Virus record (IMG/VR): IMGVR_UViG_3300020182_000020
DNA: 64,000 nt
Strand: one strand, 5' to 3'
DNA from: a virus
Shown here: in pieces, positions 1-15,037 of the stretch
Layout of the letters: each line of letters starts with the position of its first letter
Numbering within the stretch: the stretch's first letter is position 1
Notes under the pieces: generated by a model
What the model saw: the letters and a program-made list of their open reading frames with translations, nothing else
What the model was told of the DNA's origin: nothing
Database searches by the model: none
Translations under genes and position numbers: made by a program

Positions 1-1
1 C

Positions 2-379
2 TGGGGCGGTATGGAGAACCATGGCCTCGTGTTAAACAATCGAAGTGGCGTTGTTGACTGGATGGGTATTGACGAGTCGACAATTGAAGCTGTCAAGGAC
101 AAGCCCTGTTACTATCCATTCTATAAGATGTTTGTTGATTGGAACGGTGATTGTATTCTTTGTTGCAATGATTGGAACAGAGAGCAAGTGGTGGGTAATT
201 TGATTACACAAAGCCTGAGTGATGTTTGGTTTGGCAAACCAATGACAAAGATAAGAAACAAGTTAAAAAAAGGCAACCGCACAGAAAAACCTTGTAATAA
301 ATGTAATGTAGATGGTACATTATTTGGTAAACCATCTTTCGATTTTATTAACGCACTAGGATCTACAACTGATGAATGA
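2..379 (+). CDS. Radical SAM protein, C-terminal SPASM/twitch domain (5'-truncated by window edge)
   Basis: Frame is open back to nt 2; NNRSG followed by CYYPF..VDWNGDCILCCNDW...CNKC, the Cys pattern of SPASM domains. Confidence 0.7.
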   Translation, partial: WGGMENHGLVLNNRSGVVDWMGIDESTIEAVKDKPCYYPFYKMFVDWNGDCILCCNDWNREQVVGNLITQSLSDVWFGKPMTKIRNKLKKGNRTEKPCNKCNVDGTLFGKPSFDFINALGSTTDE

Positions 380-1229
380 AATATTCCAACAAATGAATAA
401 AAAAGATAAGAAGGAAAAAACCTTCAGGGTTGATCATCCTTCGACGATATGGAAAAAAATTAACTCGCCTTTTCAACTTGCTAATTTTTTAAACAATCAG
501 GACAGAATATATGATGTAATGTCGCTATTAAATCCTAAAAAACCAAAGGGAATGAAAAAAGTTAGAATCGGCGAACAGAATGATGGTGGATATGTTTTTA
601 TAGAAGATCTCTTAAAAGGCGGCAAGGTTGCCTATTCTATTGGCATTGGTAAGACAGTTAAGTTTGAAGAGGCAATTGAAGCATATGGTCACCATATATG
701 GATGTATGATCATACTGTTGACGGTAGCAGGTTTGCTACACCAAACCGAACAATTCAAAAAATAGGGATTGGTCCTAAAAACAAGGGTGAACTGCAGACC
801 TTAAAGACAATGATCGCGAACAATAACCATTCTAATGAAGACAACATGCTTTTGCAGATGGACTGTGAAGGAGCAGAATGGGATGTCTTTTCTTCTATGA
901 ATCCAGACGACCTTAAAGGTTTTTCTCAGCTTTGTGTAGAGATGCATTGGTTTGTTTCTTATTTTTCACAAGCACATACCACAGACCTTATCGAGAACGC
1001 GCTACAGAAACTTCGAAAACACTTTACTCCTTGCCATGTACATGCAAACAATTGGTCAGGTTTCTATAAGATTCCAGGTAAACCTCCAGTGGCGGAGACC
1101 TTTGAGGTCACATGGATACGCAATGATCTAGTAGAATGGGATGAATCGGAAGAAGTTTATCCAACAGAATTTGACTCGCCTTGTAACGCTACAAGATATG
1201 AAATTGAATTAGGCAATGCCCAATGGTAA
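372..1229 (+). CDS. FkbM-like SAM-dependent methyltransferase
   Basis: RIGEQNDGGY, YSIGIG, and LLQMDCEGAEW...QLCVEMH motifs. Confidence 0.75.
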   Translation: MNEIFQQMNKKDKKEKTFRVDHPSTIWKKINSPFQLANFLNNQDRIYDVMSLLNPKKPKGMKKVRIGEQNDGGYVFIEDLLKGGKVAYSIGIGKTVKFEEAIEAYGHHIWMYDHTVDGSRFATPNRTIQKIGIGPKNKGELQTLKTMIANNNHSNEDNMLLQMDCEGAEWDVFSSMNPDDLKGFSQLCVEMHWFVSYFSQAHTTDLIENALQKLRKHFTPCHVHANNWSGFYKIPGKPPVAETFEVTWIRNDLVEWDESEEVYPTEFDSPCNATRYEIELGNAQW

Positions 1230-2017
1230 AAAACATCGCAATACGTTCGATGTCTATGTGGCGAAAGGGCGTGCCCTATACAACTCCAGGAGTAGGCGAT
1301 AGGATACACGCGGTTCTATTTGGCCAGAAATATGCAGATGCACATATGTGTGATGTTGTTCTACATTTAACCTCTGACAAATATGGTAAGCAAGCTAAGA
1401 AAGACACATGGGCAGCATTGAGTGAAATGACTCGAGGTAAAGTCAAAGTTAAAGCATGGCCAGTCTGCGGTTTATCAGAACCAGATTGGTTAGAATATCT
1501 TAAAAATCAAGGGGTCGAAGATCCACAGACTTACTACTATAAAGATCATATTGATCTACAACCTCTTGGTCCAGTTAAAGGCATTGACCTTATTGACGCG
1601 GATGAATACCTTACAGAGTCACCAAAACTTGAACCAATTGATTGTTCTAGTGAAATTGTTTTGCCTCAGAGGTATGTAACTGTTCAATGGGATTCAGCTG
1701 ACAGCAGTAGACAATTGTCTCCGTTAATGTTGAATAAAATTGAAAATGAGTATAGAATAAAAGGACTAGACCTAGTAGTCGTCGGTGGACAGGCTAAAAG
1801 CCGCCACTTAAGAAATTCTTTAAAACACGTTGGGTTTTGTATGGCAAACTCTGAAGGTCATGTTGGAATCGATTCCGGCATGTTGCATATGGCTTCATTA
1901 TATGTTGCATGGAATTTAATAGACATTTATAATCCAATAGGAAACATCAAAGGTAAATCTTCGCATCATGTGTATCGCATGCATAAACATGGCGCTAAAG
2001 TTAATACTTACACATAA
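1223..2017 (+). CDS. GT9-like (heptosyltransferase-family) glycosyltransferase
   Basis: N-terminal PGVGDRIH and C-terminal HVGIDSGMLHMAS match the GT9 GxGD and DSGxxHxA motifs. Confidence 0.65.
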   Translation: MVKNIAIRSMSMWRKGVPYTTPGVGDRIHAVLFGQKYADAHMCDVVLHLTSDKYGKQAKKDTWAALSEMTRGKVKVKAWPVCGLSEPDWLEYLKNQGVEDPQTYYYKDHIDLQPLGPVKGIDLIDADEYLTESPKLEPIDCSSEIVLPQRYVTVQWDSADSSRQLSPLMLNKIENEYRIKGLDLVVVGGQAKSRHLRNSLKHVGFCMANSEGHVGIDSGMLHMASLYVAWNLIDIYNPIGNIKGKSSHHVYRMHKHGAKVNTYT

Positions 2018-2027
2018 GGAATAAATT

Positions 2028-2678
2028 ATGAGAGCATGGGAAGAATATAAATCAGCAAACACGGTCGAGGAAGCTCAGGCTATACAAGAAACTCTTCTCA
2101 CCAAAGACATCGCAGAGGAAAGACAAAATTCGTTTAAGCGTTTGCGTTCTCTAATGCGATATGCAGCCAAATGTGAATCTGTTAAAGAAATTGGAATATT
2201 CCAAGGCAGTTCATTAATGGCAATGATGATTCAAGACAGCGTTAAACACGGCGTTGGGATCGATATTAACCTGAATCACTTTAAAAAATATCTGAAACCT
2301 TTATTAGTAGAATATTGTGAACGTAAAGGAAAGACATTAAAAAGCCATGGCGTCAGTTCTTTAGATGTATCAACTGTTAGTTCTGTCGATATGCTTCATA
2401 TCGACAGTTTGCACCACCCCTCTCATTTAAAAAAAGAACTACAAACACATCATATGTCTGTTAAGAAGTACATTGCCTTTCATGATATAAAACAAAACGA
2501 TTGGGCTTTACTTAAAGTCATTGAAGAATTTTGCCAAAACAACCGCGAATGGTCCGTTGTTGAACGGTTAACTGGAGGAGGTGCCGGACATGCAGTGATC
2601 GCCCGTGACGCCACTGAAGATGACTTAGGAGATATTCAAGAGAAACCTCCTGGACCAACAAAACGTATTAGCAGTTAA
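2028..2678 (+). CDS. Class I SAM methyltransferase (Methyltransf_24-like)
   Basis: KEIGIFQGSS, DMLHIDSLH and YIAFHD motifs. Confidence 0.7.
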   Translation: MRAWEEYKSANTVEEAQAIQETLLTKDIAEERQNSFKRLRSLMRYAAKCESVKEIGIFQGSSLMAMMIQDSVKHGVGIDINLNHFKKYLKPLLVEYCERKGKTLKSHGVSSLDVSTVSSVDMLHIDSLHHPSHLKKELQTHHMSVKKYIAFHDIKQNDWALLKVIEEFCQNNREWSVVERLTGGGAGHAVIARDATEDDLGDIQEKPPGPTKRISS

Positions 2679-2679
2679 A

Positions 2680-3480
2680 ATGGGAATGGGGGATGATATG
2701 TTTTTTCTCGGCGAAGCGGAGAAAATCTTTAAAGAAACTGGCCAACTGGTAAGGCCAGTTGGTAGTGGTAAATCTCCTCTTTTTAATAACGTTGAGTTTC
2801 TATCGGACAGCGGAGTAACTGTCAACACAAGAGACACCACTCCAGAAAAAACAGACTATAGAATACAGTATATGTGCTCAGAAGAGAAAAGGACTATTCT
2901 GGGTAAGAAAATGGTCTGGCGGCCATATAAGATTAAACCTTTTCATATTCGATTCACCGAGAAAGAATTAGAAACCGCAGATAAAATTTTAGAAGAACAC
3001 AATGTACCAAAAGAGTTTGTTGCGATTAATCCTGACTTTAAAAAAACATTCTTCGGTTCGAATAAAAACTGGGGGATCAAGAAGTATCAAGAGTTAGTAG
3101 ACAGGCTTGACGGCCTTGTTGACCTGCCTTGTGTTCGAATAATGCCTAAAGGGATCTACAAAGAGCCTTTAATTAAAGGCGCGATAAATATTGAGAGCAC
3201 AGACGTTCGTGTTTCTTTTGCCATGTTAAGAAACGCGAAATTCGGTGTTGGATATATCGGAATGTTTATCCACGCACTAGGAGGTATGGGTATACCTTGC
3301 GTTGTTTTACAGGGTGGTATAGCAAACACAACGATTGGCGAATATCCTGGTCATATCAATATAGAATATGATCATCCAGAGTCGCCCTGCGGTAACACTT
3401 ACGAATGTTCACATTGTGCTGACGCCAATGAATGGATGACAGTTGATATGATTTTTAATGCATGCAGGAAATTATTATGA
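2680..3480 (+). CDS. GT9-like glycosyltransferase
   Basis: GMGDD start, VAINP, KNWG, HALGGMGIPCVVLQGG; ends in a Cys cluster (C-x5-C-x2-C). Confidence 0.6.
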   Translation: MGMGDDMFFLGEAEKIFKETGQLVRPVGSGKSPLFNNVEFLSDSGVTVNTRDTTPEKTDYRIQYMCSEEKRTILGKKMVWRPYKIKPFHIRFTEKELETADKILEEHNVPKEFVAINPDFKKTFFGSNKNWGIKKYQELVDRLDGLVDLPCVRIMPKGIYKEPLIKGAINIESTDVRVSFAMLRNAKFGVGYIGMFIHALGGMGIPCVVLQGGIANTTIGEYPGHINIEYDHPESPCGNTYECSHCADANEWMTVDMIFNACRKLL

Positions 3481-3980
3481 GCGATCACACGATACAATTT
3501 GGAGGTAAGATTTACCCGAAACTGCAACAAGAAGGATTTGCATCTCAATACGCATTTCCATTTGCTTCGAAGTTATTGAAAGGTAAAGGTGTTGATGTTG
3601 GATGTATGAAACCGGAATGGGCGTTTCCAGGAGCAATACCTGTAGACTTAGACTTTGACGATGAATGGCACGCCTTGAACCTTCCTGAAAATGAATTAGA
3701 CTATGTTTTCTCTTCACATTGTCTCGAGCATCTATCCGACTGGGTTGGTGTTTTAGACTACTGGTATGAACAATTAAAAGTTGGTGGTCTTCTGTTTTTA
3801 TACCTACCTAGTTATCAGCAAGAGTACTGGAAACCTTGGCATAACCGAAAACACGTAAACGTTTTAGAACCTCATATCATTCGTGATTGCCTTCAATCTA
3901 GAGGAAAATGGAGAGAAGTTATTGTTACCGACGGTTTTGACCTTAACCATTCGTTCTACGCGACAGCTCGAAAAGTTTAA
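3477..3980 (+). CDS. SAM-dependent methyltransferase (type 11-like)
   Basis: GVDVGC, DYVFSSHCLEH, LKVGGLLFLYLP; ATG at 3477 overlaps the upstream stop. Confidence 0.75.
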   Translation: MSDHTIQFGGKIYPKLQQEGFASQYAFPFASKLLKGKGVDVGCMKPEWAFPGAIPVDLDFDDEWHALNLPENELDYVFSSHCLEHLSDWVGVLDYWYEQLKVGGLLFLYLPSYQQEYWKPWHNRKHVNVLEPHIIRDCLQSRGKWREVIVTDGFDLNHSFYATARKV

Positions 3981-4441
3981 TGAAAGCTACTCCTCTCTAT
4001 CCTTCTAATCCCGAGACTCTGTGTTTAAATCATAAGACAAAAGTTTTAGTGAATGGCGCGTTTGACATTCTACATACAGGCCACATCGATTTGTTCATGT
4101 ACGCCAAGTCTTTAGGATATGTTATCTGCGCTATTGATAGTGACGAAAGAATACGGCAGAATAAAGGAATAGATCGCCCAGTTAACCCTTTGCCGGTTAG
4201 AGCCAAGATTTTGTCTCGTATAATTGACATTAACGAAGTTTGGTCATTTAACAGCGACGTTGAATTGATTTCTCTTATGTCTAGAGCAGACGTGAGGGTT
4301 ATTGGATCCGATTGGAAAGGCAAAGATATTGTTGGTGAAGATCTAATCGATATCGATTTTTTTGAAAGAGTAAATGATGAAGCTACCACAAACACCCTTG
4401 AAGATTATATTAATCGGCGAAACCTGTTGGGACGCGTATAG
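3980..4441 (+). CDS. hldC: RfaE/HldE domain II-like nucleotidyltransferase (heptose-1-phosphate adenylyltransferase-like)
   Basis: NGAFDILHTGH (HxGH), DSDERIRQNKG..RPVN, IGSDW. Confidence 0.75.
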   Translation: MKATPLYPSNPETLCLNHKTKVLVNGAFDILHTGHIDLFMYAKSLGYVICAIDSDERIRQNKGIDRPVNPLPVRAKILSRIIDINEVWSFNSDVELISLMSRADVRVIGSDWKGKDIVGEDLIDIDFFERVNDEATTNTLEDYINRRNLLGRV

Positions 4442-5126
4442 ATCTGGGACTGTTAACCGAATAAGTCCAGAGGCTCCTGTTCCTGTTTTAGACTGGCCAG
4501 GAATTGAAACGTGCCGAGAAGGTATGGCAATGAACGTTGCTGCCAATTTAGAAAATTTTGGAGCAGAGATCGATCTTCATACGAGGTATGTCGAACAAAA
4601 AATAAGATATTTTAGTGGACAGCACCAGCTGTTGCGAGTTGACATCCCTCTAGTTGGATGGCATCCGTTTGATCCCGAAGAAATCTCAGGCGAGAACCCC
4701 GCCGCCGTTGTCATCTCTGATTATAACAAAGGGTTTATATCTTATGACGCGATAAGATATATTCGAGCTAACTGCCATTGCCCAATGTTTATCGATACCA
4801 AGAAGCCAGACCTCAAACAATTTGACGGAATTATTACTAAAATAAATACTGATGAGTGGAACCGTAGAACAAGCGACCATCCTACTCCAGATCAATTAAT
4901 CGTTACTGGAGGTGGCGGTAAGATTATATCTGGCAAAGAAGAATGGATTCCTCCTGAAATTGAGATGGTTGATGTCTGTGGCGCCGGAGATACTTTCTTT
5001 GCTGCATTTATTGTGAAGTTTCTTCAAACAAATAGTAAGTCTGACGCAATCGAATTTGCCATGAGAGCTGCAGCAGTTACTGTACAACACTTAGGAGTTT
5101 ATGCTCCGACACTGGAGGAGATATGA
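4374..5126 (+). CDS. hldA: RfaE/HldE domain I-like PfkB kinase (heptose-7-phosphate kinase-like)
   Basis: NRISPEAPVPV, AMNVAANL, ISDYNKG, VDVCGAGDTF. Confidence 0.8.
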   Translation: MMKLPQTPLKIILIGETCWDAYRSGTVNRISPEAPVPVLDWPGIETCREGMAMNVAANLENFGAEIDLHTRYVEQKIRYFSGQHQLLRVDIPLVGWHPFDPEEISGENPAAVVISDYNKGFISYDAIRYIRANCHCPMFIDTKKPDLKQFDGIITKINTDEWNRRTSDHPTPDQLIVTGGGGKIISGKEEWIPPEIEMVDVCGAGDTFFAAFIVKFLQTNSKSDAIEFAMRAAAVTVQHLGVYAPTLEEI

Positions 5127-5476
5127 CTAGATTAGAAGGAACCGTGAAGAAAGCGTGGGGTTCAGAAATAATCTGGGCGACCAACGAACTGTATTGCGGA
5201 AAATTAATGAACTTTAATTCTGGTTGTTCGTTTTCTATGCACATGCATAAAGAGAAAGACGAAACTTGGTACGTGTTGTCTGGCAAATTTATTCTAAAAT
5301 TAATAGACACGTCTGACGCTAGCGTTTCAGAAAAAATCCTAAATACTGGCGATGTATGGAGAAACGAACCTATGCTCCCGCATCAGCTCTACTGTCTCGA
5401 ACAGGGCACTATTATCGAGGTGTCGACACCAGATTCTGTAGAGGACAATTACAGAGTAGGAAAAGGAAAAAATTAA
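5123..5476 (+). CDS. Cupin-domain sugar isomerase-like protein
   Basis: VKKAWGSEIIW, SMHMHKEKDETWYV, PHQL, EVST. Confidence 0.75.
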   Translation: MTRLEGTVKKAWGSEIIWATNELYCGKLMNFNSGCSFSMHMHKEKDETWYVLSGKFILKLIDTSDASVSEKILNTGDVWRNEPMLPHQLYCLEQGTIIEVSTPDSVEDNYRVGKGKN

Positions 5477-5478
5477 AA

Positions 5479-5760
5479 ATGAGATTTATTGTCGACATAG
5501 ATAAGACTATCTGTTTAACATTAGACGGTAATTATTATACTGCATTGGCGATTAGAAAACACGTTGAAAAAATAAACGCTTTATATGACGCGGGGCATGA
5601 GATTATTTACTGGACAGCTCGCGGCGCTGTCTCTGGAAAAGACTGGAGCGCACTTACTAAGCAACAATTAGAAGACTGGGGTGTTCGGTATACAGAATTA
5701 TGGATGAACAAACCGCATTATGATGTGTGGGTAGATGATAAGGCGGAATGGATATTTTAA
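5479..5760 (+). CDS. Small HAD-superfamily phosphatase
   Basis: DIDKT (DxDxT), YWTARG, KPHYDVWVDDK; true start taken as ATG at 5479. Confidence 0.75.
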   Translation: MRFIVDIDKTICLTLDGNYYTALAIRKHVEKINALYDAGHEIIYWTARGAVSGKDWSALTKQQLEDWGVRYTELWMNKPHYDVWVDDKAEWIF

Positions 5761-5761
5761 A

Positions 5762-6463
5762 ATGAAAGTAAAAATTATTGTAATGCACGGAAATGGGATT
5801 TCAGAAAGAGGTTATCACGCCTGTCGCCGTAGTGCAAGAAAGGTTAATGGCCCTGCGTTTTGGATGAACATATTTAAAGCTATACGCCCATGGGAAATTG
5901 AAGATCTGCAACAGAAGTATGGGTTATCATACACATATCCGACGAAAGAACCTAGGCTTGATTTTTCAACAGGCCTGAGTCTTTCGCCCTATGTTGGAAA
6001 TACCGATACTCGTATTGCTTGTTTCTTTTCTCATTATCTCCTCTGGCAAGAATGCGTGGAAACACAAGAGCATTTTCTTATTCTAGAACATGATGTGGAA
6101 TTTGTTAATAAAGTAAATTGGGATCATCTAGAAAAATCTAAGTACCAGATCATTGGGATTAACGATCCTCGAGGCGCAACGAGGCGCTCGCAAGAATATC
6201 ATAACTTAGCACAAGCAAGAAATTACACAATTGCTCCTCCTCCATATATTGATGAACAACATGTGCCACAAGGACTTGCAGGCAATTCAGCCTACTATAT
6301 AAAACCCCTTGGTGCACAAAAACTTATTGAGCTGGTTGATCAGCATGGCATTTGGCCCAACGACGCTATTATGTGCAAACAACTACTACCTGGAATGTTG
6401 GGTCAAACTAAAAAATATTATACAAAAGTGCAAGGGTTAGTTTCAACTACTACTACATTATGA
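5762..6463 (+). CDS. Glycosyltransferase family 25-like
   Basis: IACFFSHYLLWQEC, LILEHD, AYYIKPLGAQKL. Confidence 0.75.
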   Translation: MKVKIIVMHGNGISERGYHACRRSARKVNGPAFWMNIFKAIRPWEIEDLQQKYGLSYTYPTKEPRLDFSTGLSLSPYVGNTDTRIACFFSHYLLWQECVETQEHFLILEHDVEFVNKVNWDHLEKSKYQIIGINDPRGATRRSQEYHNLAQARNYTIAPPPYIDEQHVPQGLAGNSAYYIKPLGAQKLIELVDQHGIWPNDAIMCKQLLPGMLGQTKKYYTKVQGLVSTTTTL

Positions 6464-7107
6464 AATCATTCGTAATAACTATAAAAGACAATAGTCTTTC
6501 TGAGCAAGCTGCAGAAAGATGTATTCGATCGATGCCAGATTTTAAAGTATTAAAGTTCTACGGCATTACTCCAAAGGACAACCCTCTAGAGATATTGAAA
6601 ATAGAATCAATACCTGTTTCTGGGTTCCAAGAAAAGTATTCTTATCTTGAGTCCTGCATTGCGGCGTTTCTTTCTCATTATGCTCTATGGAAAAAATGTG
6701 TAGAGGATAAAGTAGAATATCAAATCTTCGAGCACGATGCTTTCTGCGTTGGAGAGTTACCTGAGTTTATAAATTATGACAAAGCGATATCTTTAGGCAA
6801 ACCAAGTTATGGCAACTTCAACACCCCACTAATGTTAGGAACTAATCCTCTTGTTTCCAAGCGTTACTTTCCTGGGGCGCATGCGTATCGAATAAAACCA
6901 GCTGGCGCTAAAGAGCTGATCGCCCGCGCAAAAGTTGATGGTGGGCCAACAGACGTTTTCTTACACCTTGACAAATTCCCTTGGTTGCAAGAGTATTACC
7001 CTTGGCCAGTAGTCGCAAAAGACTCTTTCACCACAATACAGAAAACGCAAGGTTGTTTGGCGAAACATAATTGGCATGATGGGGTAGGTTATGAAATCGT
7101 ACGATAA
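6460..7107 (+). CDS. Glycosyltransferase family 25-like
   Basis: FLSHYALWKKC, IFEHDA, GAHAYRIKPAGAKELI; paralog of upstream gene. Confidence 0.75.
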   Translation: MKSFVITIKDNSLSEQAAERCIRSMPDFKVLKFYGITPKDNPLEILKIESIPVSGFQEKYSYLESCIAAFLSHYALWKKCVEDKVEYQIFEHDAFCVGELPEFINYDKAISLGKPSYGNFNTPLMLGTNPLVSKRYFPGAHAYRIKPAGAKELIARAKVDGGPTDVFLHLDKFPWLQEYYPWPVVAKDSFTTIQKTQGCLAKHNWHDGVGYEIVR

Positions 7108-7753
7108 AGTTTTTGTTACAGGATGTGATGAAAAGACTGAGTGGCAGCTAGAATGGTTCCACAAAAATTTTAAAAAACACAATAAAACAATCCCTATTGT
7201 TTTTGCAGACTTTGGCGTTTCTGCAGAAATGCTTGAATGGATACACAAGATAAGCACATTTGATGATATAATTAGTATTCCTAAACAAAGAGTAAACGGC
7301 TGGTTTCTCAAGCCCAAAACACTGCAACTTATCAACGCAAAAAAACTCTGTTGGCTTGATACTGATTGCGAAGTTCTAGAAAATATCGAAGACATATGGA
7401 ATCATTGCGAACCAGACAAGCTCGGGATGTGCGAAGACAGACCATGGTCTAAACGTTCTGGAGAGAAATGGTTTAATTCGGGTGTTATGGCAATTATAGA
7501 TAAACCAAGAATATTAAACGCATGGATCGATGCATGCGCCAAGAAACCAAATCAAGGCGATCAAGAAGTTTTACATTTTATGATGGGTAATCCGCTTAAT
7601 CAGGTTACTCACATCTGCCAGCTGCCTCATATGTATAACTGGCTTCGAATTGATGTTCAACACGATTCTACCGATAGCAATAAAAAAAGAATTATGCACT
7701 GGACTGGTGAGAAAGGTAATAACATAATAAGGAAAAAAATATATAATGGCTGA
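7091..7753 (+). CDS. GT8-like / nucleotide-diphospho-sugar transferase
   Basis: WLDTD (DxD), FNSGV, GDQEVL, IMHWTG. Confidence 0.7.
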   Translation: MKSYDKVFVTGCDEKTEWQLEWFHKNFKKHNKTIPIVFADFGVSAEMLEWIHKISTFDDIISIPKQRVNGWFLKPKTLQLINAKKLCWLDTDCEVLENIEDIWNHCEPDKLGMCEDRPWSKRSGEKWFNSGVMAIIDKPRILNAWIDACAKKPNQGDQEVLHFMMGNPLNQVTHICQLPHMYNWLRIDVQHDSTDSNKKRIMHWTGEKGNNIIRKKIYNG

Positions 7754-8504
7754 AAAAGTTTGGCACATAATTGGTAACGGCGATTTAGCAGCGGTATACA
7801 AATTTCGAGAAAGGGCAGGCAAAAAAATAATCTGTAACATGCCTCCTTTTGATATGCCTGCAAACGAAGTTTACGCGACCGCCATGGTTGATTTTAAGAT
7901 GATGATGGCTCTTACCGAAGGCTCCTTGAACCTAGATATGTACCCGTGGATCCTTGGCACTCGACCTAAGATCTGGATGAGCGACCCAAAACAATCAAAC
8001 TTCTATTTAAAATATGCTGCAAACGTTCGCGAATTTTATACAGATGTTCCCAAGTATGCTAAGAATGCAACCAACTTCAACTGCGGAATGATGGCAGTAC
8101 ATTATGCCGTCCATAAAAAGAAAGCAGACGTTGTACATATGTATGGGTTTGATACGCTATTTGATTTTAATATGCGGTCAGTTACGGACCTTTACTTGAA
8201 CAGCGACAGAGGAAACATAAACAATTTTAGGTTGATAGAGAATTGGCGACCTGTGTGGAACGGTATCTTTAAAGAAGCTGAACAAAAAACAGGAACTAAA
8301 TTTATTCTTCATCACAATCACAATAATCTTAAAATCACTAATCGAGATAATATATCTGTCGAGACATATGACTTGAAAGAAGAAAAAAAGAAGAGTAAGA
8401 TAAAGTCTTCGGGTCCGGTTGTTTCGAAAGAACAAATTAACAATATGAACCGCCAACAAAAAAGGGCCTATGAAGCCCAACTTCGAAAGGGTATATTAGG
8501 ATAA
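7746..8504 (+). CDS. Conserved glycan-cluster protein (DUF115/sialyltransferase-like fold suspected)
   Basis: HIIGNG start, ICN, VHMYGFD; basic C-terminal tail. Confidence 0.4.
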   Translation: MAEKVWHIIGNGDLAAVYKFRERAGKKIICNMPPFDMPANEVYATAMVDFKMMMALTEGSLNLDMYPWILGTRPKIWMSDPKQSNFYLKYAANVREFYTDVPKYAKNATNFNCGMMAVHYAVHKKKADVVHMYGFDTLFDFNMRSVTDLYLNSDRGNINNFRLIENWRPVWNGIFKEAEQKTGTKFILHHNHNNLKITNRDNISVETYDLKEEKKKSKIKSSGPVVSKEQINNMNRQQKRAYEAQLRKGILG

Positions 8505-8505
8505 T

Positions 8506-9162
8506 ATGTTTAAACACGCTCCAGTCGATCTAGGGTACGATGATTTATTAACAGAACAGAAAAACAATAAGAGGCATTATCGTTCTGGTTCGAATCTATA
8601 CCCGTCAATTACAACTGTCCTCAGTGTATTAAGCGAAGAAGGTATCGCCAAGTGGCGAGCAAAAGTGGGCGATGAGGAAGCAGATAAGATCTCTTATCGA
8701 GCGGCCACTCGGGGAACTGCGGTTCATGAGATAATTGAGAAGTACATAAACAACGATCCAGAGTATCAATCTAGTTATATGCCGAACATTATTGGTAATT
8801 TTTTATCAGTCAAAAAAATTCTAGACGAACGAATTGGAGTAGTCTATGGTCAAGAACTTCCTCTCTATTCTGATCATTTACGCGTCGCTGGGCGCGTTGA
8901 TTGCGTTGCTCAATTTGACGGCAAGGATTCAATCATTGACTTTAAAACCAGTCGAAAACCAAAACTCCGAAAGTATATCACCAACTACTTTCAACAAGAG
9001 TCTGCCTACGCGATCATGTGGGAAGAACGCACCAGAATGCCAATTACCCAACTCGTTACCATAGTCGCAGTAGACGACGCCAAGCCCCAAGTGTTTGTGG
9101 AACATAGAGATAAATGGGCTCCAGAACTCCTCAAGACAATAAAACTCTTCGAAAATCAATAA
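8506..9162 (+). CDS. PD-(D/E)XK exonuclease of T4-like phages
   Basis: YPSITTVLS, RGTAVHE, AGRVDC, IIDFKTS, QxSAYA. Confidence 0.8.
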   Translation: MFKHAPVDLGYDDLLTEQKNNKRHYRSGSNLYPSITTVLSVLSEEGIAKWRAKVGDEEADKISYRAATRGTAVHEIIEKYINNDPEYQSSYMPNIIGNFLSVKKILDERIGVVYGQELPLYSDHLRVAGRVDCVAQFDGKDSIIDFKTSRKPKLRKYITNYFQQESAYAIMWEERTRMPITQLVTIVAVDDAKPQVFVEHRDKWAPELLKTIKLFENQ

Positions 9163-9225
9163 CTTACCTCTAGTTTTAATTCGTCATTTCGTATGGTATA
9201 ATAATATCATAAGCAAAAAAGGACG
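9155..9225 (+). promoter_or_regulatory. Early-type promoter, copy 1
   Basis: ATCAATAACTTA (9155-9166), GTTTTA at -35, TGnTATAAT (-10 at 9197-9202), TAAGCAAAAAAGGA leader/RBS. Confidence 0.65.
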
Positions 9226-9230
9226 GAAAT

Positions 9231-9617
9231 ATGATCGCAGTATACCAGTGGCACCTCTCTGACGAATTGTCTGACCTCATTAATCGTGATGGTTGGATGG
9301 CTAATGAAACCACTACGGCTTACGCTGATAAGGGTTGCAGTTGGATGATCGATGATGGTCGATTTGATGCTGCTAAGTGGTTTTACCAATATGAATTGGT
9401 CGCTACTTGCAAAACGGATGATCCTGAAGAAGCGTTCGTTCTGATGAACCTCTGGAATGATCCTGACCGAGTTTGCAAAATCGGTGCTCGGGTCGCTTCC
9501 TTGTCAATTGGTGATATCCTTGAAGTTGCTGGTGGTAAATTTCTTCTCTGTACTGGTGAGGGTTTCCAAGAAATCTTTCCTGTAAACGGCCATATCACTA
9601 GAGTTGCTGCTGGTTAA
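9231..9617 (+). CDS. Hypothetical protein
   Basis: 128-aa ORF behind promoter and AGGA RBS; ends with SLSIGDILEV motif. Confidence 0.6.
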   Translation: MIAVYQWHLSDELSDLINRDGWMANETTTAYADKGCSWMIDDGRFDAAKWFYQYELVATCKTDDPEEAFVLMNLWNDPDRVCKIGARVASLSIGDILEVAGGKFLLCTGEGFQEIFPVNGHITRVAAG

Positions 9618-9627
9618 TTTGAAGAAT

Positions 9628-9696
9628 ATCAATAACTTAGCTGTGGTTTTATTTCAGGACTTTGCGGGGTATAATTACCTTGTAAGCAAAAAGGAG
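9628..9696 (+). promoter_or_regulatory. Early-type promoter, copy 2
   Basis: ATCAATAACTTA (9628-9639), GTTTTA at -35, TATAAT (9670-9675), TAAGCAAAAAGGAG; same spacings as copy 1. Confidence 0.65.
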
Positions 9697-9704
9697 TTGG
9701 CGTA

Positions 9705-9893
9705 ATGGATAGAGTTAAACTGAATCATGAAGTGGGATCGGTGTACATTCCTAAAGATCGTCGGAAGCCTGTTGAGAATCCTATGTTCGCTGAGCAAAAT
9801 TTTGATGAGACGTTCATGCAAGGTGTGATCGGATCTTTTATCGGTTCAATGGTTATCTTCGGAACTCTGTTAGCAATCTTGGTGCTTGTATAA
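9705..9893 (+). CDS. Small membrane protein
   Basis: 62 aa with hydrophobic C-terminal helix; AGGAG RBS. Confidence 0.55.
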   Translation: MDRVKLNHEVGSVYIPKDRRKPVENPMFAEQNFDETFMQGVIGSFIGSMVIFGTLLAILVLV

Positions 9894-10261
9894 TGAATTA
9901 TAAAAAATTTGACATTGCTGTACTCAATGAAACTATTGGATGGAAATCTGCTGCTGGATATCTTGAAGGTACGATCAAGCGTATTGACACTCGCAAGAAC
10001 ACTGCTTGCAAGAAGACTCTCAGTGATTGGGTCTTGGTTGATGTTCTTCCTTACTTTGCACGATTTGAAGGTGAGACTGCTTACCTCAACGCAAACTTCC
10101 TGATGGAAGGTGGCAAGGTCCGAAAACTTTCTTCTGCCCCAGAGAGTGCATACGGCATGTATGTTGCGAAGAGACGCTCCTTTGGTGATGCGGTTATGTC
10201 AGAACGAGAGTTTGAGCGATTAGCATTGACAATTGAATCAAAATTAAAGGAGAGTGTGTAA
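9893..10261 (+). CDS. Hypothetical protein
   Basis: 122-aa ORF, TAATG-coupled on both sides. Confidence 0.55.
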   Translation: MNYKKFDIAVLNETIGWKSAAGYLEGTIKRIDTRKNTACKKTLSDWVLVDVLPYFARFEGETAYLNANFLMEGGKVRKLSSAPESAYGMYVAKRRSFGDAVMSEREFERLALTIESKLKESV

Positions 10262-10425
10262 TGGTCCCATGGTATGCAAAAGGCGAAGTCGGCGAGTACT
10301 TGATTCACGCACTTGATTTGATTCAAGACGGGCAGATCAATGATGCTATCAGTGCTTGTCTCAGTGTTGGTATGAGTGACGAAGAAATTGATGAGTTTTT
10401 ATCTGCTGAAGGAGTTGCACAATGA
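10261..10425 (+). CDS. Small acidic hypothetical protein (not in ORF track)
   Basis: 54 aa MVPWYAKGEV...EGVAQ; AAGGAG RBS, TAATG overlap at start, ATGA overlap at end. Confidence 0.55.
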   Translation: MVPWYAKGEVGEYLIHALDLIQDGQINDAISACLSVGMSDEEIDEFLSAEGVAQ

Positions 10426-10652
10426 GAGATTTAACTGGTAAGATTTGCGAAATCGATTATGTCGGTTCGAGCGTGCGAGTTCTTGGTAAGATTACTATGT
10501 CGCGTTACAGTGGTGCTACTGGTGTGACGCACCACTTTGAGTTTCTTACTCCGTTTCGATGGAAACAGAACGGGTGCGAAATTATCCGTGAAGTTGGTGA
10601 GGGTTCTTGCACCGACGATAACATGGTTGTGAAAGTATGGGAGACAGCGTAA
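10422..10652 (+). CDS. Hypothetical protein
   Basis: 76-aa ORF with GAAGGAG RBS, coupled to neighbours. Confidence 0.55.
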   Translation: MRDLTGKICEIDYVGSSVRVLGKITMSRYSGATGVTHHFEFLTPFRWKQNGCEIIREVGEGSCTDDNMVVKVWETA

Positions 10653-10903
10653 TGGAAAAAGTAAATTTGTCTGGTTTGGACGCAACAGAAATCTGTGAAA
10701 TTCTTCACGAGAAGTGTAAGTTTCACGACTGGACTTACATGATGTCGGATGACAGCCGTGCGTATCATGCTGGTCTTGCGGAAGCAGACGAGATCGAATA
10801 CATCCGTGGTGTTCTTGACGCTATGGGGTTTAAGATGACTGCCAAAACCATCATCGAAGGATGGAAACCAAACAGTTTAAAAAAAGAAGGATACTTAGTA
10901 TGA
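10652..10903 (+). CDS. Hypothetical protein
   Basis: TAATG-coupled start at 10652; HDWTYMMSDD motif. Confidence 0.55.
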   Translation: MEKVNLSGLDATEICEILHEKCKFHDWTYMMSDDSRAYHAGLAEADEIEYIRGVLDAMGFKMTAKTIIEGWKPNSLKKEGYLV

Positions 10904-11106
10904 GTGAATTAACAACCAACCCTAAAGCATACCTGAACGGTTCCTTCGTCAACTTTGAACGCAACGGTAAACGTGCTACGGGCTTCGTTTCGGAAGTCTT
11001 TGACGAAGGTTTTGCTGTGGACATGGTAGTCCACGACGACAAGGGTTTTCCTGGTCATAACACGGACTACACCGTGTTCGTAAAAACGGATGAGGCATTT
11101 CGATGA
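10900..11106 (+). CDS. Hypothetical protein
   Basis: ATGA-coupled start at 10900, AAGGA RBS. Confidence 0.5.
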   Translation: MSELTTNPKAYLNGSFVNFERNGKRATGFVSEVFDEGFAVDMVVHDDKGFPGHNTDYTVFVKTDEAFR

Positions 11107-11255
11107 AGAAAATAAACGGGTTGATGTCTGGTATTGAAAAATCATTCGATGAACAAGAAAAAAAGTTTAATCGTCTTGAGCTGGCGGTCTTCGGTTTGTA
11201 TATCCTCAACGTTAGTATTGTTGCCGCATCAATTTTTTTAGGAGTCTTTGAATGA
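11103..11255 (+). CDS. Small membrane protein (not in ORF track)
   Basis: 50 aa MKKINGLMSG...VFE with C-terminal hydrophobic helix; ATGA overlaps at both ends. Confidence 0.5.
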   Translation: MKKINGLMSGIEKSFDEQEKKFNRLELAVFGLYILNVSIVAASIFLGVFE

Positions 11256-11719
11256 GTTTTGCTAGAATGCAGGAGGCACTTCGTGCCGAAGGTTGGTTCG
11301 TTGAGTGGAACATGCCGTGTTGCCAGTCGTGCGCGTGGGGTGAAGTCGAGCACACTGATATGACCAAAGTGTTATTCAATCATTCTCAAGACTGTGAAGT
11401 CGCTGACACGAGTGATAAAGATTGCGAATACTGTGACGGTACAGGTTTCGACGATGAAGACGATGTTCATTGTGGACATTGTGAAGGTGAGGGTTTCGTT
11501 TCATGTGACTTCGAGGACCTCGACTATGAACCCGACACCAGTGTGGGTGGGTTTGTTTGTATGCCTCCTACCGAGTGTGACGGATCACTGTTCTGTTTTG
11601 ATGGTGGCGATGAAGGCGTGTTGAATTTAAAATTAATTTCGCCCATAATAGAACAATGTGGTTGTAAAATTGAGTGGGACGAAACAGGCAATACAAGACC
11701 CTATGTCAGTTGGAATTAA
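11252..11719 (+). CDS. DUF6891-like protein with inserted CxxCxGxG zinc finger
   Basis: GWFVEWNMPCCQSCAW, CEYCDGTG...CGHCEGEG; AGGAG RBS. Confidence 0.5.
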   Translation: MSFARMQEALRAEGWFVEWNMPCCQSCAWGEVEHTDMTKVLFNHSQDCEVADTSDKDCEYCDGTGFDDEDDVHCGHCEGEGFVSCDFEDLDYEPDTSVGGFVCMPPTECDGSLFCFDGGDEGVLNLKLISPIIEQCGCKIEWDETGNTRPYVSWN

Positions 11720-11733
11720 TTAAGGACAAATAA

Positions 11734-11943
11734 GTGATTAAGATAAGAGAAGTTTTTCGTGATGAAGTAATTGACGAGTTCATGCGTCAAGAACTTGATG
11801 ACGTGATCGAATATTGTTTGGACGATAAAGCGCCCAAAGATTGGCACGATGACGCGCTGATACGTTCGATTCATGTAGTAAGAGCATATTACAGTGTACC
11901 TGGAACTTACATGGAAGGAGCATATGATGCTGAAGAGAGATAG
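11734..11943 (+). CDS. Hypothetical protein
   Basis: 69-aa acidic ORF, GTG start with AAGGA RBS. Confidence 0.5.
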   Translation: MIKIREVFRDEVIDEFMRQELDDVIEYCLDDKAPKDWHDDALIRSIHVVRAYYSVPGTYMEGAYDAEER

Positions 11944-12616
11944 TGAAGTAAGTTTAGTAGGTATGACAACCCCTAGTGCGTCTACAGGATGCCATACCGC
12001 TGCAGAGTTAGTAGCATATGCTGCTCGGGTTAGCAATCCGGCTAACCAAAATAATACTAAGACAGCAAAGAAACTGTTAAAGTATTTAATTAAAGAGAAC
12101 CACTGGTCGCCTTTCGAAATGGTTTCGATTACGATGGAGATTGTTACGACTCGAGATATCAGCAGACAGATTCTTCGGCATCGTTCGTTCTCTTTTCAAG
12201 AATTCTCTCAACGTTATGCAGTAAGCGAGTCGTTTGTAACTAATCGTGAAGCGAGAAAACAACATCCGACTAATCGACAGTTGAGCCAGAAAGATACAAA
12301 TCCAGAAATTCAACGTAAAGCCCAAGAAGTGTTTTCTGAAATGCAAGGAGAAGTCTCTCGAGTCGCTAAGGACTATTATGAGATGGCGCTAAATACCGGT
12401 ATCGCTAAAGAACAGGCGCGTGCTCTGCTTCCAGAAGGCCTGACAGAAACAACCTTGTATATGTCAGGTACCTTACGCTCTTGGGTTCACTACTGTGAGT
12501 TACGCCGAGGACACGGAACGCAAGCAGAACATATGGAAATTGCAGATAAATGTTGGGAGATAATTGGAGTTCATTTTCCTGATGTAGTTTCTGCTCTAGA
12601 ACCTACTGATGACTGA
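11924..12616 (+). CDS. thyX: FAD-dependent thymidylate synthase ThyX
   Basis: ARVSNP, HWSPFE, RQILRHRSFSFQEFSQRY, EQARALLP; GGAAGGAG RBS before 11924. Confidence 0.95.
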   Translation: MMLKRDSEVSLVGMTTPSASTGCHTAAELVAYAARVSNPANQNNTKTAKKLLKYLIKENHWSPFEMVSITMEIVTTRDISRQILRHRSFSFQEFSQRYAVSESFVTNREARKQHPTNRQLSQKDTNPEIQRKAQEVFSEMQGEVSRVAKDYYEMALNTGIAKEQARALLPEGLTETTLYMSGTLRSWVHYCELRRGHGTQAEHMEIADKCWEIIGVHFPDVVSALEPTDD

Positions 12617-12803
12617 TTATCCAGAAGGTGTTTATGGTTGGGTTTTTAATTACGATGAGGTAGAATATAAACTCCGTTGTAAACAAAAGATGTATTGGAA
12701 AACGTATAAGTTTAAAGCTACTGATGTGCAGCTTGTAGATAAATCTACAGACAAAGAAATGAAACAGACTATCGCTGATAGTCTTAATGAGGAGTTGCGA
12801 TGA
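12609..12803 (+). CDS. Hypothetical protein
   Basis: 64-aa ORF overlapping neighbours. Confidence 0.5.
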   Translation: MTDYPEGVYGWVFNYDEVEYKLRCKQKMYWKTYKFKATDVQLVDKSTDKEMKQTIADSLNEELR

Positions 12804-13405
12804 ACATATTTGATCTTGATCAAGATCCTAAAAAATGCGCAGAAAGTCATAATGATTCTCATGTTGTTAAAATGTGCACCGAATATGCTCAACTAATGTC
12901 TACGGCGCATCGTGTTCTCGACGGAACCCCTTGGTATGGAAAGTCTGCAACAGGTAGAAAAATTAAAAGGTATTACCTAGAGAATCCTCTTTTCAATATG
13001 AACCTCTACCTTGCTTGTCATATTAACCATCCTTCTAATATCTGGCTACGTCAAAGCAAAGATAACTACCAGTGGCTATACACAATGTGGTCTTTTTTGC
13101 TTAAAGAGTATACGTATCGATATGACAAGGAACATGGCGCGGGCAAGTTGCATAGTTTTCTGTTCTGGGTTCCTAACAATATTCCTACAGACATTGGCTT
13201 AACGCCTGTTACTCCTGCAGTGGGAAACTTTTCCACATGCATTGTCAAAAACGATTCTGTAGAATCTTACAGAAATTATTATTGGGAAGCCAAGCGTAAT
13301 CTGGCAAAGTGGAAACGAAGGAGCCCACCAGATTGGTGGATTCAAAGAGAGCAAGTAGAATATAACCTAATTGAGAAAACTTTATTTCAGGAGCCCGTGC
13401 ATTGA
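12800..13405 (+). CDS. Pyrimidine-dimer DNA glycosylase / endonuclease V-like family protein
   Basis: MNIFDLDQDP..CAESHNDSHVVKMCTEYAQLMSTAHR, HINHPSNIW, VESYRNYY. Confidence 0.6.
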   Translation: MNIFDLDQDPKKCAESHNDSHVVKMCTEYAQLMSTAHRVLDGTPWYGKSATGRKIKRYYLENPLFNMNLYLACHINHPSNIWLRQSKDNYQWLYTMWSFLLKEYTYRYDKEHGAGKLHSFLFWVPNNIPTDIGLTPVTPAVGNFSTCIVKNDSVESYRNYYWEAKRNLAKWKRRSPPDWWIQREQVEYNLIEKTLFQEPVH

Positions 13406-13716
13406 ACGGTAAAGGAAGCAAACCAAGACCTCTGAGCGTTAAGCAAAATGCATTTGATGCGCAATGGGATCTTATTTTTGGGGGAAAAAATATGAAATAC
13501 CATGAGCATAAGAGTCAGGTCAACATCAATGAAGTAATATCTAAACATTGGTCAGACAACGGCAAGAAAGAAGCTATTGTACAGAAGAGTGTGGTAGGGT
13601 ATTCTGTTGAATTGTTTGAACAATCAAGGTATATTAGAACAGTTGAGTGCTTTGACAAGTCGCTTAGTTATGCTGAAGATGTCGCCGAAAATTTTTGTTT
13701 GGGAATATTATCGTGA
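13402..13716 (+). CDS. Hypothetical protein
   Basis: TTG start with AGGAG RBS; GKGSKPRP..WDLIFG N-terminus; second possible start at 13492. Confidence 0.5.
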   Translation: MNGKGSKPRPLSVKQNAFDAQWDLIFGGKNMKYHEHKSQVNINEVISKHWSDNGKKEAIVQKSVVGYSVELFEQSRYIRTVECFDKSLSYAEDVAENFCLGILS

Positions 13717-14492
13717 AAATTGTTGTTGCTGGTTATGGTGCCGTTGGGCAGGCAGTTGAATATGTCTTGCAAAAGAGAGACGATTTGCAGGTTTTTGTAG
13801 ATGATCCTGCAAAGGGACACAACTATATACCGAATCCTAATCTATCTCCCGTTGATGCTGTTGTCGTTTGCGTTGCCACGCCTATGCGCGAAAACGGTTC
13901 TTGTAATACTGATCATGTCGAAGAAGTGTTTAATAAGTACGGTAGTGTGAAGTATTTAATTAAATCAGCTGTCGATCCTGTTTGGATAGATTGGGAAGCG
14001 GGGGTTCGTGACGGTAGTTATACTTACTCGCCTGAGTTTTTGGGTAGTTCGAACGTCAATCGAAATACATTAGAAGAATTTGAGTTTCAAACATATGCAA
14101 TCTATGGTGGAGACGATTGTCGATTTTGGGATGAACTGTTACGGCCAGTATTACCAAGTTTGTGCGATGTTAAGTATTGTTCTTTGCAACAGGCATCCTT
14201 TGCTAAGTATGTTGAGAATACCTTTTTAGCAACTAAGGTGACCTTCTTTAACGAGATGTATAAAATCTATAAAGACATTGGATTCGAAGGGTTTGACCAA
14301 ATGGTAGATGCTATTACTGTTGACCCTAGAATTGGAAAGTCTCACACTCAGGTTCCTGGGCCGGATGGTAAATTTGGATATGGGGGCCATTGTTTACCAA
14401 AGGATATCGCGGCATTGAGGTATATTGCTGTTGGTTCACCACTATTAGACGCTGTCGTAGATTGTAATGAGGAGTATAGAAATGAAAATTAA
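13713..14492 (+). CDS. ugd: UDP-glucose/GDP-mannose dehydrogenase family protein
   Basis: GYGAVG Rossmann motif, YSPEFL, AKYVENTFLATKVTFFNE, GYGGHCLPKD. Confidence 0.85.
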   Translation: MKIVVAGYGAVGQAVEYVLQKRDDLQVFVDDPAKGHNYIPNPNLSPVDAVVVCVATPMRENGSCNTDHVEEVFNKYGSVKYLIKSAVDPVWIDWEAGVRDGSYTYSPEFLGSSNVNRNTLEEFEFQTYAIYGGDDCRFWDELLRPVLPSLCDVKYCSLQQASFAKYVENTFLATKVTFFNEMYKIYKDIGFEGFDQMVDAITVDPRIGKSHTQVPGPDGKFGYGGHCLPKDIAALRYIAVGSPLLDAVVDCNEEYRNEN

Positions 14493-14757: not shown

Positions 14758-14758
14758 G

Positions 14759-15013: not shown

Positions 15014-15037
15014 AATTTTACCTAGGAGTAAGTTGTA

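Follow-up and report, generated by a model that had tools for sequence, protein, structure and literature searches.

The sugar-gene island analysed here, at positions 2-8504 of the IMG/VR virus record IMGVR_UViG_3300020182_000020 (the window, meaning the whole stretch of 64,000 nucleotides, nt), can be compared with several described systems that make and use activated sugars. In the bacterial heptose pathway the sugar phosphate is isomerised by the SIS-fold enzyme GmhA, phosphorylated at O-1 by a PfkB kinase with a PEAPVPV motif (HldA, or domain I of HldE), freed of its distal phosphate by the HAD phosphatase GmhB and joined to a nucleotide by an HxGH nucleotidyltransferase (HldC, or domain II of HldE), and the heptose is then transferred by GT-B enzymes of glycosyltransferase family GT9 with a Gly-Asp pair. 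The characterised GT9 members in CAZy are chiefly ADP-heptose-dependent heptosyltransferases. The protein heptosyltransferase TibC, of the TibC/AAH type (bacterial autotransporter heptosyltransferases, BAHT; PDB 4RAP, 4RB4), uses ADP-D,D-heptose as its donor (PMC4358343). Phages DLP3 (gp81-82) and RB69 (gp51-53) are proposed to make a nucleotide sugar of their own with a phage-encoded isomerase, HAD, kinase and nucleotidyltransferase (bioRxiv 10.1101/2025.06.16.659550).

The closest counterpart is a four-gene cassette of T4-like cyanophages, found as PSSM2_309-312 in P-SSM2, as SSSM7_126-131 in S-SSM7, and also in S-CAM1 and others. Its genes are annotated with heptose-pathway names and often adjoin a short-chain dehydrogenase/reductase (SDR) labelled ADP-heptose 6-epimerase. 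The P-SSM2 clusters were called lipopolysaccharide (LPS) genes, with a suggested change of the host surface during pseudolysogeny (PMC1079782), and another account of cyanophage clusters lists cupin sugar isomerases, PfkB kinases, HIGH nucleotidyltransferases, HAD phosphatases and glycosyltransferases, with heptose unmentioned (PMC7824862). The cassette is already known as an annotated, uncharacterised feature of T4-like cyanophages, and its occurrence in a lytic phage, which the original prediction for this DNA had put forward, is not a first, since the same four genes are annotated there (PMC1079782, PMC7824862). Our literature search found no experimental work on the cassette genes, no paper joining sedoheptulose, cupin, isomerase and heptose or joining cyanophage, heptose and P-SSM2, and none on phage-encoded virion heptosylation.

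The window adds to this picture a non-cyanophage lineage, two minimal GT9-fold enzymes directly adjoining the cassette, and more fusion and co-occurrence evidence for the cupin. On balance we consider it probable that 3980-5760 encodes a self-contained, GmhA-free route to a nucleotide-activated manno-configured heptose, which would be passed to the GT9-like enzymes. The HxGH nucleotidyltransferase, the PEAPVPV kinase, the HAD and the cupin that the original prediction named are all in place on the + strand, as their motifs and family matches indicate. The genes on which the argument turns are the following (lengths in amino acids, aa).

1223..2017, + strand: GT9-like transferase A, 264 aa (AlphaFold model and structure matches; its relative P0014 reaches PF01075)
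2680..3480, + strand: GT9-like transferase B, 266 aa (AlphaFold model and structure matches; homologues reach PF01075)
3980..4441, + strand: HxGH nucleotidyltransferase, like HldC or HldE domain II, 153 aa (PF01467 2e-8; TIGR02199; phrog_7878)
4374..5126, + strand: shortened PfkB kinase, like HldA or HldE domain I, 250 aa (TIGR02198; PF00294 6e-13; phrog_8133)
5123..5476, + strand: small metal cupin (Cupin_2 1e-7; PF01050 17.9 bits; phrog_7851 5e-38)
5479..5760, + strand: minimal HAD phosphatase, 93 aa (phrog_1238 2e-23; TIGR01689 weak; start as on contig L005)

The analysis shows folds, families, catalytic motifs and gene linkage, whereas all the substrates, the function of the cupin and the nature of the acceptor are inferred. 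The metal cupin would convert sedoheptulose 7-phosphate to heptose 7-phosphate, a step that in chemical terms is the phosphomannose-isomerase reaction on a seven-carbon sugar. The shortened HldA-like kinase would then phosphorylate O-1, the 93-aa HAD would remove the 7-phosphate, and the HxGH nucleotidyltransferase would add a nucleoside monophosphate, which is the bacterial order of reactions. GT9-like A and B, of which A is the better candidate, would transfer the heptose, and the GT25, GT8-like, methyltransferase and radical-SAM enzymes of the island would extend and modify the glycan. Since no SDR epimerase lies beside the window cassette, the expected product would be the D,D-heptose form, and the use of ADP-D,D-heptose by TibC fits a cassette without an HldD-type epimerase. 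A more ambitious version, in which the cupin is a new sedoheptulose-7-phosphate isomerase, unrelated to the GmhA that it replaces, of a minimal four-enzyme pathway to nucleoside diphosphate (NDP)-D,D-heptose in hundreds of marine phages and the two GT9 enzymes start a methylated glycan on virion proteins, is possible but doubtful.

The logic of sugar activation followed by GT9-type transfer, as first proposed for this locus, is borne out by family matches, intact motifs, structure matches and linkage in other phages. The module had been called near-complete for want of GmhA; the pathway probably has all its steps, the cupin acting as isomerase. That the phage makes heptose agrees with this logic and with the best family matches, while all four enzymes score far under the curated cut-offs, so that heptose is the best guess for the sugar. 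The window differs from the bacterial pathway in having a metal cupin in place of GmhA and no HldD beside the cassette, and in its kinase and nucleotidyltransferase being separate genes in reversed order.

The window cassette and those of P-SSM2 and S-SSM7 encode four homologous proteins of equal lengths, with the same overlap of the nucleotidyltransferase and kinase genes. The identities by tblastn are 42-46% for the nucleotidyltransferase, 36-39% for the kinase, 44-45% for the HAD and 36-38% for the cupin, and all four PHROG members (7878, 8133, 7851, 1238) are adjacent on one strand in the window. Unlike the cyanophage cassette, that of the window has the cupin before the HAD, has no adjacent SDR epimerase or carbamoyltransferase, is directly flanked by two GT9-like genes and methyltransferases, and belongs to an island among early-type genes and not among tail-fibre genes.

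The nucleotidyltransferase and the kinase are both nearest to the two domains of HldE. The top NCBIfam match of the nucleotidyltransferase is TIGR02199 (rfaE_dom_II, 77.4 bits, with TagD and PPAT at 40 to 43), and it matches phrog_7878 at 6e-31. It carries HTGH and a C-terminal ATTNT (the S/T-T-T nucleotide-binding motif), and its H32, G34 and H35 are invariant among the phage homologues. For the kinase the top match is TIGR02198 (rfaE_dom_I, 99.6 bits, with ribokinase at 43.7), and phrog_8133 is matched at 1e-63. Its motifs are SPEAPVPV, NxxE and a GAGD catalytic loop, of which PEAPVP, NxxE and GAGD are invariant in alignment A4, and its best PDB sequence match is HldA (4e84), aligned in three blocks. 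Since homology of the kinase begins at residue 9 or 10, its start must lie at 4374 or 4377, which gives a 68-nt overlap with the nucleotidyltransferase gene. The two genes overlap in different frames by 68 nt in the window, 62 nt in its 86% relative L006 and 41 nt in P-SSM2, and conserved motifs of both proteins interleave inside the 68 nt of the window, an arrangement that suggests translational coupling. A bridge protein of 501 aa (P0019) joins a short kinase, a nucleotidyltransferase and a cupin in one chain; its nucleotidyltransferase part reaches 284.6 bits on the HldE model NF008454 and its cupin part is 63% identical to that of the window.

Several features of these two enzymes weigh against heptose as the substrate. 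The scores of 77.4 and 99.6 bits are far under the curated equivalog cut-offs of 181.5 bits (TIGR02199) and 345 bits (TIGR02198). The kinase has 250 aa against about 310 in the full-length form, with about 60 HldA residues missing (about 39 and about 21 between the blocks). In PDB sequences the nucleotidyltransferase matches TagD, ECT and HldC in a tie near E 2e-9; it is as near to glycerol-3-phosphate and ethanolamine-phosphate cytidylyltransferases as to HldC and its scores are low, and therefore the substrates may differ. An alternative hypothesis could be that the same logic serves another sugar: the cupin would be a phosphomannose isomerase (PMI), the kinase would give mannose 1,6-bisphosphate, the HAD would remove the 6-phosphate, and an NDP-hexose, or an activated pentose or octose, would go to the GT9-like enzymes. 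We regard this as quite unlikely. All the enzymes are far under the heptose equivalog cut-offs and the shortened kinase is almost confined to phages, as it would predict; the only named match above threshold in the cupin family is to the domain of mannose-6-phosphate isomerase, reached through the fusion protein P0021; and the viral contig L014 pairs a nucleotidyltransferase-PMI-cupin fusion with a KdsA-like enzyme, so that the gene set serves other sugars too. On the other side, the kinase and nucleotidyltransferase are nearest to the HldE domains and not to other PfkB or HIGH members, the bridge protein scores high on the HldE model, the adjoining transferases are GT9-like, and an HldD-like SDR is added in 64 of 80 viral loci, as described below.

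The cupin is proposed to take the place of GmhA in these phages. Its metal site of three His and one Glu (H40, H42, E47, H87) is invariant among homologues. The window protein itself reaches 17.9 bits on PF01050 (mannose-6-phosphate isomerase domain), under the cut-off of 23.6, and P0021, an NT5C-like HAD fused to a cupin 57.5% identical to that of the window, exceeds it with 31.0 bits. The Atlas neighbours of the cupin are viral clusters, part of them tagged MannoseP_isomer or Lyx_isomer. The original prediction proposed looking for gmhA upstream in the full genome, and no such gene came to light. A SIS domain was not found in the scanned open reading frames (ORFs) of window positions 1-17602, the rest of the window and the full genome not being searched; no SIS-domain gene is among the genes called upstream in L006; and PF13580 (SIS_2) has no match across the whole P-SSM2 and S-SSM7 genomes, with control matches in 11 of 14 reference genomes.

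We found at least 580 stretches encoding kinase relatives in IMG/VR, and we tallied the neighbours of the kinase in the best 80 viral loci (IMG/VR, L022-L101) and in the best 80 cellular loci, where the relatives are of the HldA/E type. A nucleotidyltransferase is present in 74 of the viral and 42 of the cellular loci, and an HldD-like SDR in 64 and 18, respectively. The cupin is found in 74 viral loci and in a single cellular one, that of a bacterium of the candidate phyla radiation (CPR), while GmhA occurs in 16 cellular loci and in none of the viral ones, searched with E. coli GmhA; no locus of either kind has both. The cupin accompanies the viral kinase and nucleotidyltransferase whether the SDR is present or not. 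Searches of phage records gave about 31 to 35 matches for the kinase and likewise for the cupin, all of them to T4-like cyanophages or marine single-virus assemblies. Cellular genomes have nearly all the canonical 300-aa kinase, 24 to 30% identical to that of the window. The short form was seen in cells only on two contigs of Ferruginibacter metagenome-assembled genomes (MAGs; L102 and L103, about 40% identity), which may be phage DNA binned into MAGs.

The simplest reading is that the cupin performs the GmhA step, because it lies beside the kinase in viral loci, is fused to parts of the pathway, and GmhA is absent; judged from this gene content, the cupin probably replaces GmhA. A point against it is that cupin and GmhA divide along the same line as viruses and cells, which leaves no independent contrast. 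The cupin could instead be an oxygenase or an epimerase acting on a sugar, a nucleotide sugar or another substrate, with the host GmhA providing heptose 7-phosphate. This is rather unlikely in our view, and the evidence is divided. The profile of the cupin against PDB sequences meets generic metal cupins first, oxidative or decarboxylating ones such as oxalate decarboxylase and quercetinase, and sugar isomerases, among them L-ribose isomerase, come only at E 1e-4 to 0.1. PHROGs names the family (phrog_7851) "cysteine dioxygenase", and the cupin-like double-stranded beta-helix (DSBH) enzymes of the S-SSM6a cluster are placed among hydroxylating enzymes (PMC7824862). On a 360-kb contig (L019 10001-10939; P0017) a cupin 69% identical to that of the window is fused to Methyltransf_24 and adjoins an S-adenosylhomocysteine hydrolase, and neither a kinase nor a nucleotidyltransferase lies within 10 kb. 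Set against these are the 74 viral loci that hold the cupin together with kinase and nucleotidyltransferase, with or without the SDR, the fusions to an HldE-like enzyme and to a HAD, the lack of GmhA in the 80 loci and in two complete cyanophage genomes, and the weak named family matches, which are all to sugar aldose-ketose isomerases (PF01050, Lyx_isomer, L-ribose isomerase).

The HAD gene is shorter than the ORF first listed for it (5356-5760); it spans 5479-5760 and begins MRFIVDIDKT, as called on the identical contig L005. Core motifs I-IV are complete, with D6, D8, T10, T46, K78, D86 and D87 invariant in four sequences. The protein, a 93-aa core, has no match to a GmhB family model; its sole NCBIfam match is TIGR01689 (EcbF-BcbF, 21.9 bits), and Pfam HAD_PNKP is matched at 17 to 18 bits. 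It counts against the proposed route that a HAD lies within 4 kb of the kinase in only about 10 of the 80 viral loci, and therefore either the bisphosphate route is incomplete in most phages or the phosphatase is encoded elsewhere. Most viral loci consist of nucleotidyltransferase, kinase, cupin and a 256-aa SDR, and the mini-HAD is limited to a minority that includes the window and the cyanophage isolates.

The two GT9-like proteins, encoded directly beside the cassette, are the most direct genomic pointer to heptose in the window. Neither has a Pfam match, even at E 10, and BLASTP detects no similarity between them. The family profile of GT9-like B found nothing in PDB sequences, tblastn of GT9-like A against phages found nothing, and each has a handful of metagenomic relatives. 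Some relatives come up to PF01075, whose gathering cut-off is 22 bits: P0014, related to GT9-like A, scores 22.6, and those of GT9-like B score 33.2 (CcrColossus gp131), 40.3 (phage DSL-LC06) and 20.2 (P0006). The AlphaFold (AF2) models have pLDDT values of 85.6 for A and 78.9 for B. With the model of A, Foldseek places TibC first at 3e-5, then 3tov and WaaF, and the VIA Z scores are 11.7 for WaaF, 11.3 for 3tov and 11.1 for TibC and WaaC, with other folds (GT-B enzymes) at 9.0 or less. With that of B, Foldseek places 3tov first at 1.3e-7, then WaaC, TibC and WaaF, and the Z scores are 17.9 for 3tov, 15.8 for WaaF, 14.4 for WaaC and 13.7 for TibC, the next fold outside GT9 having 9.5. In these predicted models both proteins are of the GT-B fold and nearest to solved GT9 enzymes. 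The GT9-like call of the original prediction on 1223-2017 and 2680-3480 has thus held up, with no direct Pfam match, yet with models that match GT9 first and relatives that reach PF01075.

In alignment A3 with E. coli WaaC and WaaF, G12, the catalytic D13, W194 and H266 are invariant. GT9-like A retains the donor motif G-x-D-T/S-G-x-x-H as GIDSGMLH (D261 in WaaC). GT9-like B has an invariant C-x5-C-x-H-C knuckle near its C-terminus. B begins at the catalytic Gly-Asp and A only about 25 residues ahead of it; bacterial GT9 enzymes (320 to 350) exceed both in length by some 60 to 80 residues, and the N-terminal lobes of the two phage proteins are much reduced. TibC shares with them the GT9-type GT-B catalytic domain (Z 11.1 to 13.7 over both models), and B, like TibC, carries an inserted metal knuckle of Cys/His type in the C-lobe, close to the C-terminus. 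Unlike TibC, with its BAHT-type beta-barrel, beta-hairpin thumb and iron finger, the phage proteins have no N-terminal beta-barrel, the VIA alignments starting at TibC residues 97 to 106, and no four-Cys iron finger (C339, C342, C358 and C370 in TibC; PMC4358343), the spacing in B being that given above. There is no evidence of dodecamer formation, and WaaF and 3tov match as well as TibC or better by VIA Z.

The order nucleotidyltransferase, kinase, cupin, mini-HAD, GT25, GT9-like A, GT9-like B is repeated in two other viral loci, L032 and L033, with kinases that share only 45% identity with that of the window, and a near relative (L022) has the cassette with the mini-HAD and both GT9-like genes. 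Of the genomic arguments for a product that serves as GT9 donor, i.e. heptose, this recurrent order is the strongest. Some observations on the transferases point the other way. The donor motif of GT9-like B reads GYIGMFIH, with the acidic residue lost, and some relatives keep E or D; homologues of A occur in the 53% relative L011 without kinase or nucleotidyltransferase; and homologues of B occur without the cassette in Caulobacter phages and in DSL-LC06. The cassette-free phages with GT9-like homologues may draw on the ADP-heptose of their hosts.

No gene for a lipid-carrier transferase, flippase or polymerase is present in the island, and assembly of the glycan must therefore take place in the cytoplasm, on an acceptor that is already available. 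Our tentative choice, slightly preferred over the host lipid A-core, is that the phage decorates its own virion proteins. In its favour are the match of GT9-like A to TibC, the reduced N-lobes of the GT9-like proteins and the tail-fibre context of the cassette in cyanophages. Chloroviruses, with their virus-encoded, methylating capsid-glycan machinery, offer a precedent for a virion target. When we searched for an acceptor, none of the window ORFs of at least 150 aa showed a collagen-like Gly-X-Y run of more than 12 residues or a Ser/Thr tract that stood out. The published reading, that host LPS or lipooligosaccharide (LOS), as nascent lipid A-core, is remodelled during infection, for example to block superinfection or re-adsorption, is also a real possibility, though we would not call it probable. 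It is the one given for the P-SSM2 clusters (PMC1079782, PMC7824862), and LPS/LOS cores are assembled at the cytoplasmic face by enzymes of the families GT9, GT25 and GT8. It has to contend with a lytic, T4-like phage, with GT9-like N-terminal lobes reduced so far (264 and 266 aa against 320 to 350), with a protein heptosyltransferase as the best Foldseek match of GT9-like A, and with the position of the cyanophage cassette amid tail-fibre genes.

The promoters agree better with the host target. The T4 late-promoter motif TATAAATA lies just upstream of structural (baseplate, fibre) genes of the window at 20352, 29620, 43235, 53390 and 57744, and it was not found in the island nor in the whole 18 kb of L006. 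The island thus differs from the structural genes, a difference that does not favour a virion target and speaks for remodelled host LPS. The count of the motif over the whole window, 8 against 5.4 expected, is at chance, and only its placement before structural genes is suggestive; scans of the window for sigma-70 promoters and terminators were likewise at chance level. We take the lack of the motif in the island as weak evidence for its early or middle expression.

The acceptor could also be DNA, with the activated sugar as donor for glycosylation of the phage genome, in the way that DLP3 and RB69 would use NDP-arabinose for arabinosyl-5-hydroxycytosine. The pathway logic matches that proposal (bioRxiv 10.1101/2025.06.16.659550), and the island stands amid early-type genes without the late-promoter motif. 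The parts are different: those phages use a SIS isomerase and a GlmU-type nucleotidyltransferase fused with a non-PfkB kinase, their sugar is arabinose and their acceptor DNA, and tblastn with the window kinase matched cyanophage and marine-virus records only, not RB69 or DLP3. The transferases of the window are of GT9, GT25 and GT8 types, and the solved phage HY126 transferase ranks 39th for GT9-like B with a TM score of 0.25. Of thymidylate-synthase-type genes we saw in the window only one, an ordinary ThyX, and three sugar-type methyltransferases with five transferases suggest an oligosaccharide and not a base adduct. A DNA-glycosylation role is unlikely, and we hold this explanation to be highly improbable.

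Taken alone, the window is one more copy of an annotated, uncharacterised cassette. If the heptose route is true, many ocean phages would make a heptose donor from the sedoheptulose 7-phosphate of central carbon metabolism with four very small enzymes and no GmhA, and with the cupin a new class of enzyme would be added for the step that first commits a sugar to heptose synthesis. The enzymes would also be compact parts for NDP-heptose production in vitro, and the twenty-year-old puzzle of "LPS genes in lytic cyanophages" would be reopened, with virion decoration as a testable alternative.

The window comes from a T4-like myovirus, as its large ORFs match the PHROG families of baseplate wedge (gp6-type, 9e-125), hub and tail-tube cap, and it also has gp32 and ThyX genes. 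Its gp6 is nearest to those of Phage C48C1 (39.6%), Pelagibacter phage HTVC008M (35.3%) and Methylophilales phages (34%), with cyanophages farther off at about 31%. On these comparisons the phage is not a known cyanophage and its lineage is marine T4-like. A megablast search of window positions 1-9000 against 50,697 phage records gave zero matches, and an identical 10-kb JGI contig (L005) and the 86% relative L006 were recovered.

Beyond the four-enzyme core the island has a radical-SAM enzyme, three methyltransferases, two GT25, one GT8-like transferase and the two GT9-like transferases. All genes at 2-8504 are on the + strand, with junctions from a 68-nt overlap to a 10-nt gap, and because of these tight junctions and the single strand the island looks like one operon. 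The original prediction, given for 1223-5760, does not mention the two interleaved methyltransferases (2028-2678 and 3462-3980) or the operon genes on either side (2-1229 and 5762-8504). The remaining genes of the island, and the one that follows it, are listed below (SAM, S-adenosylmethionine).

2..379, + strand: radical-SAM enzyme, C-terminal SPASM/twitch part, first visible island gene (PF13186 SPASM 9.6e-14; NF033640 twitch rSAM 2e-10)
372..1229, + strand: FkbM-like methyltransferase, a weak match (PF05050 22.5 bits against a cut-off of 22.7; TIGR01444 weak; 51% homologue in L011)
2028..2678, + strand: class I SAM methyltransferase, Methyltransf_24-like (PF13578 24.6 bits against a cut-off of 26.3)
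3462..3980, + strand: class I SAM methyltransferase (PF13489 7.7e-8, PF08241 6e-6)
5762..6463, + strand: GT25 glycosyltransferase (PF01755 9e-15; start as on L005)
6460..7107, + strand: GT25 glycosyltransferase, second copy (PF01755 2e-9)
7091..7753, + strand: GT8-like or nucleotide-diphospho-sugar transferase, weak (PF01501 19.4 bits, PF03407 17.9 bits, both below cut-off)
7746..8504, + strand: last island gene, 252 aa, no family (conserved in L006 and L011)
8506-9162: PD-(D/E)XK exonuclease, outside the island

The product of 7746-8504 has no Pfam, PHROG or PDB match and shows a faint local likeness to a CcrColossus MptE-like protein (E 0.046). The cluster runs past the left edge of the window, as had been foreseen: in L006 the island starts about 2.6 kb farther left, and its extra first genes encode a 261-aa unknown protein, a GT25 and the full-length radical-SAM/SPASM protein of 314 aa (8213-9157; Radical_SAM and SPASM). 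Farther upstream in L006 are a lysozyme-like gene, PhoH, a SegE-type homing endonuclease and ribonucleotide reductase (RNR). The neighbours of the island are early-type genes (RNR, PhoH, exonuclease, ThyX, gp32). L011 8434-18336 is syntenic with window 1-8504, between PhoH/lysis genes and the exonuclease, and carries at the same site a pair of GT9-like A paralogues, a cupin of PMI type, an SDR epimerase and three GT25, with neither kinase nor nucleotidyltransferase. This different glycan set marks the site, as far as gene content can tell, as a variable sugar island of this phage lineage.

On the viral contig L014 (8476-13865) a homologue of GT9-like B stands beside the nucleotidyltransferase fused to a PMI-type cupin and the KdsA-like DAHP_synth_1 protein, together with a pair of FkbM methyltransferases, another cupin, an APS-kinase-like gene and another, small nucleotidyltransferase. 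This set may be a Kdo-like or other higher-sugar route.

Two further loci lie downstream of the island in the window. Between the exonuclease region and ThyX, 11252-11719 is an ORF of 155 aa that contains 14 cysteines and matches no family. At a distance of about 5 kb from the island, 13695-14492 (and 14467-14757) holds a further nucleotide-sugar enzyme ORF of 265 aa, which seems to lack the dehydrogenase C-terminal domain and matches the central domain of UDP-glucose/GDP-mannose 6-dehydrogenase (PF00984 3e-18; GDP-mannose dehydrogenase in PDB 3e-13).

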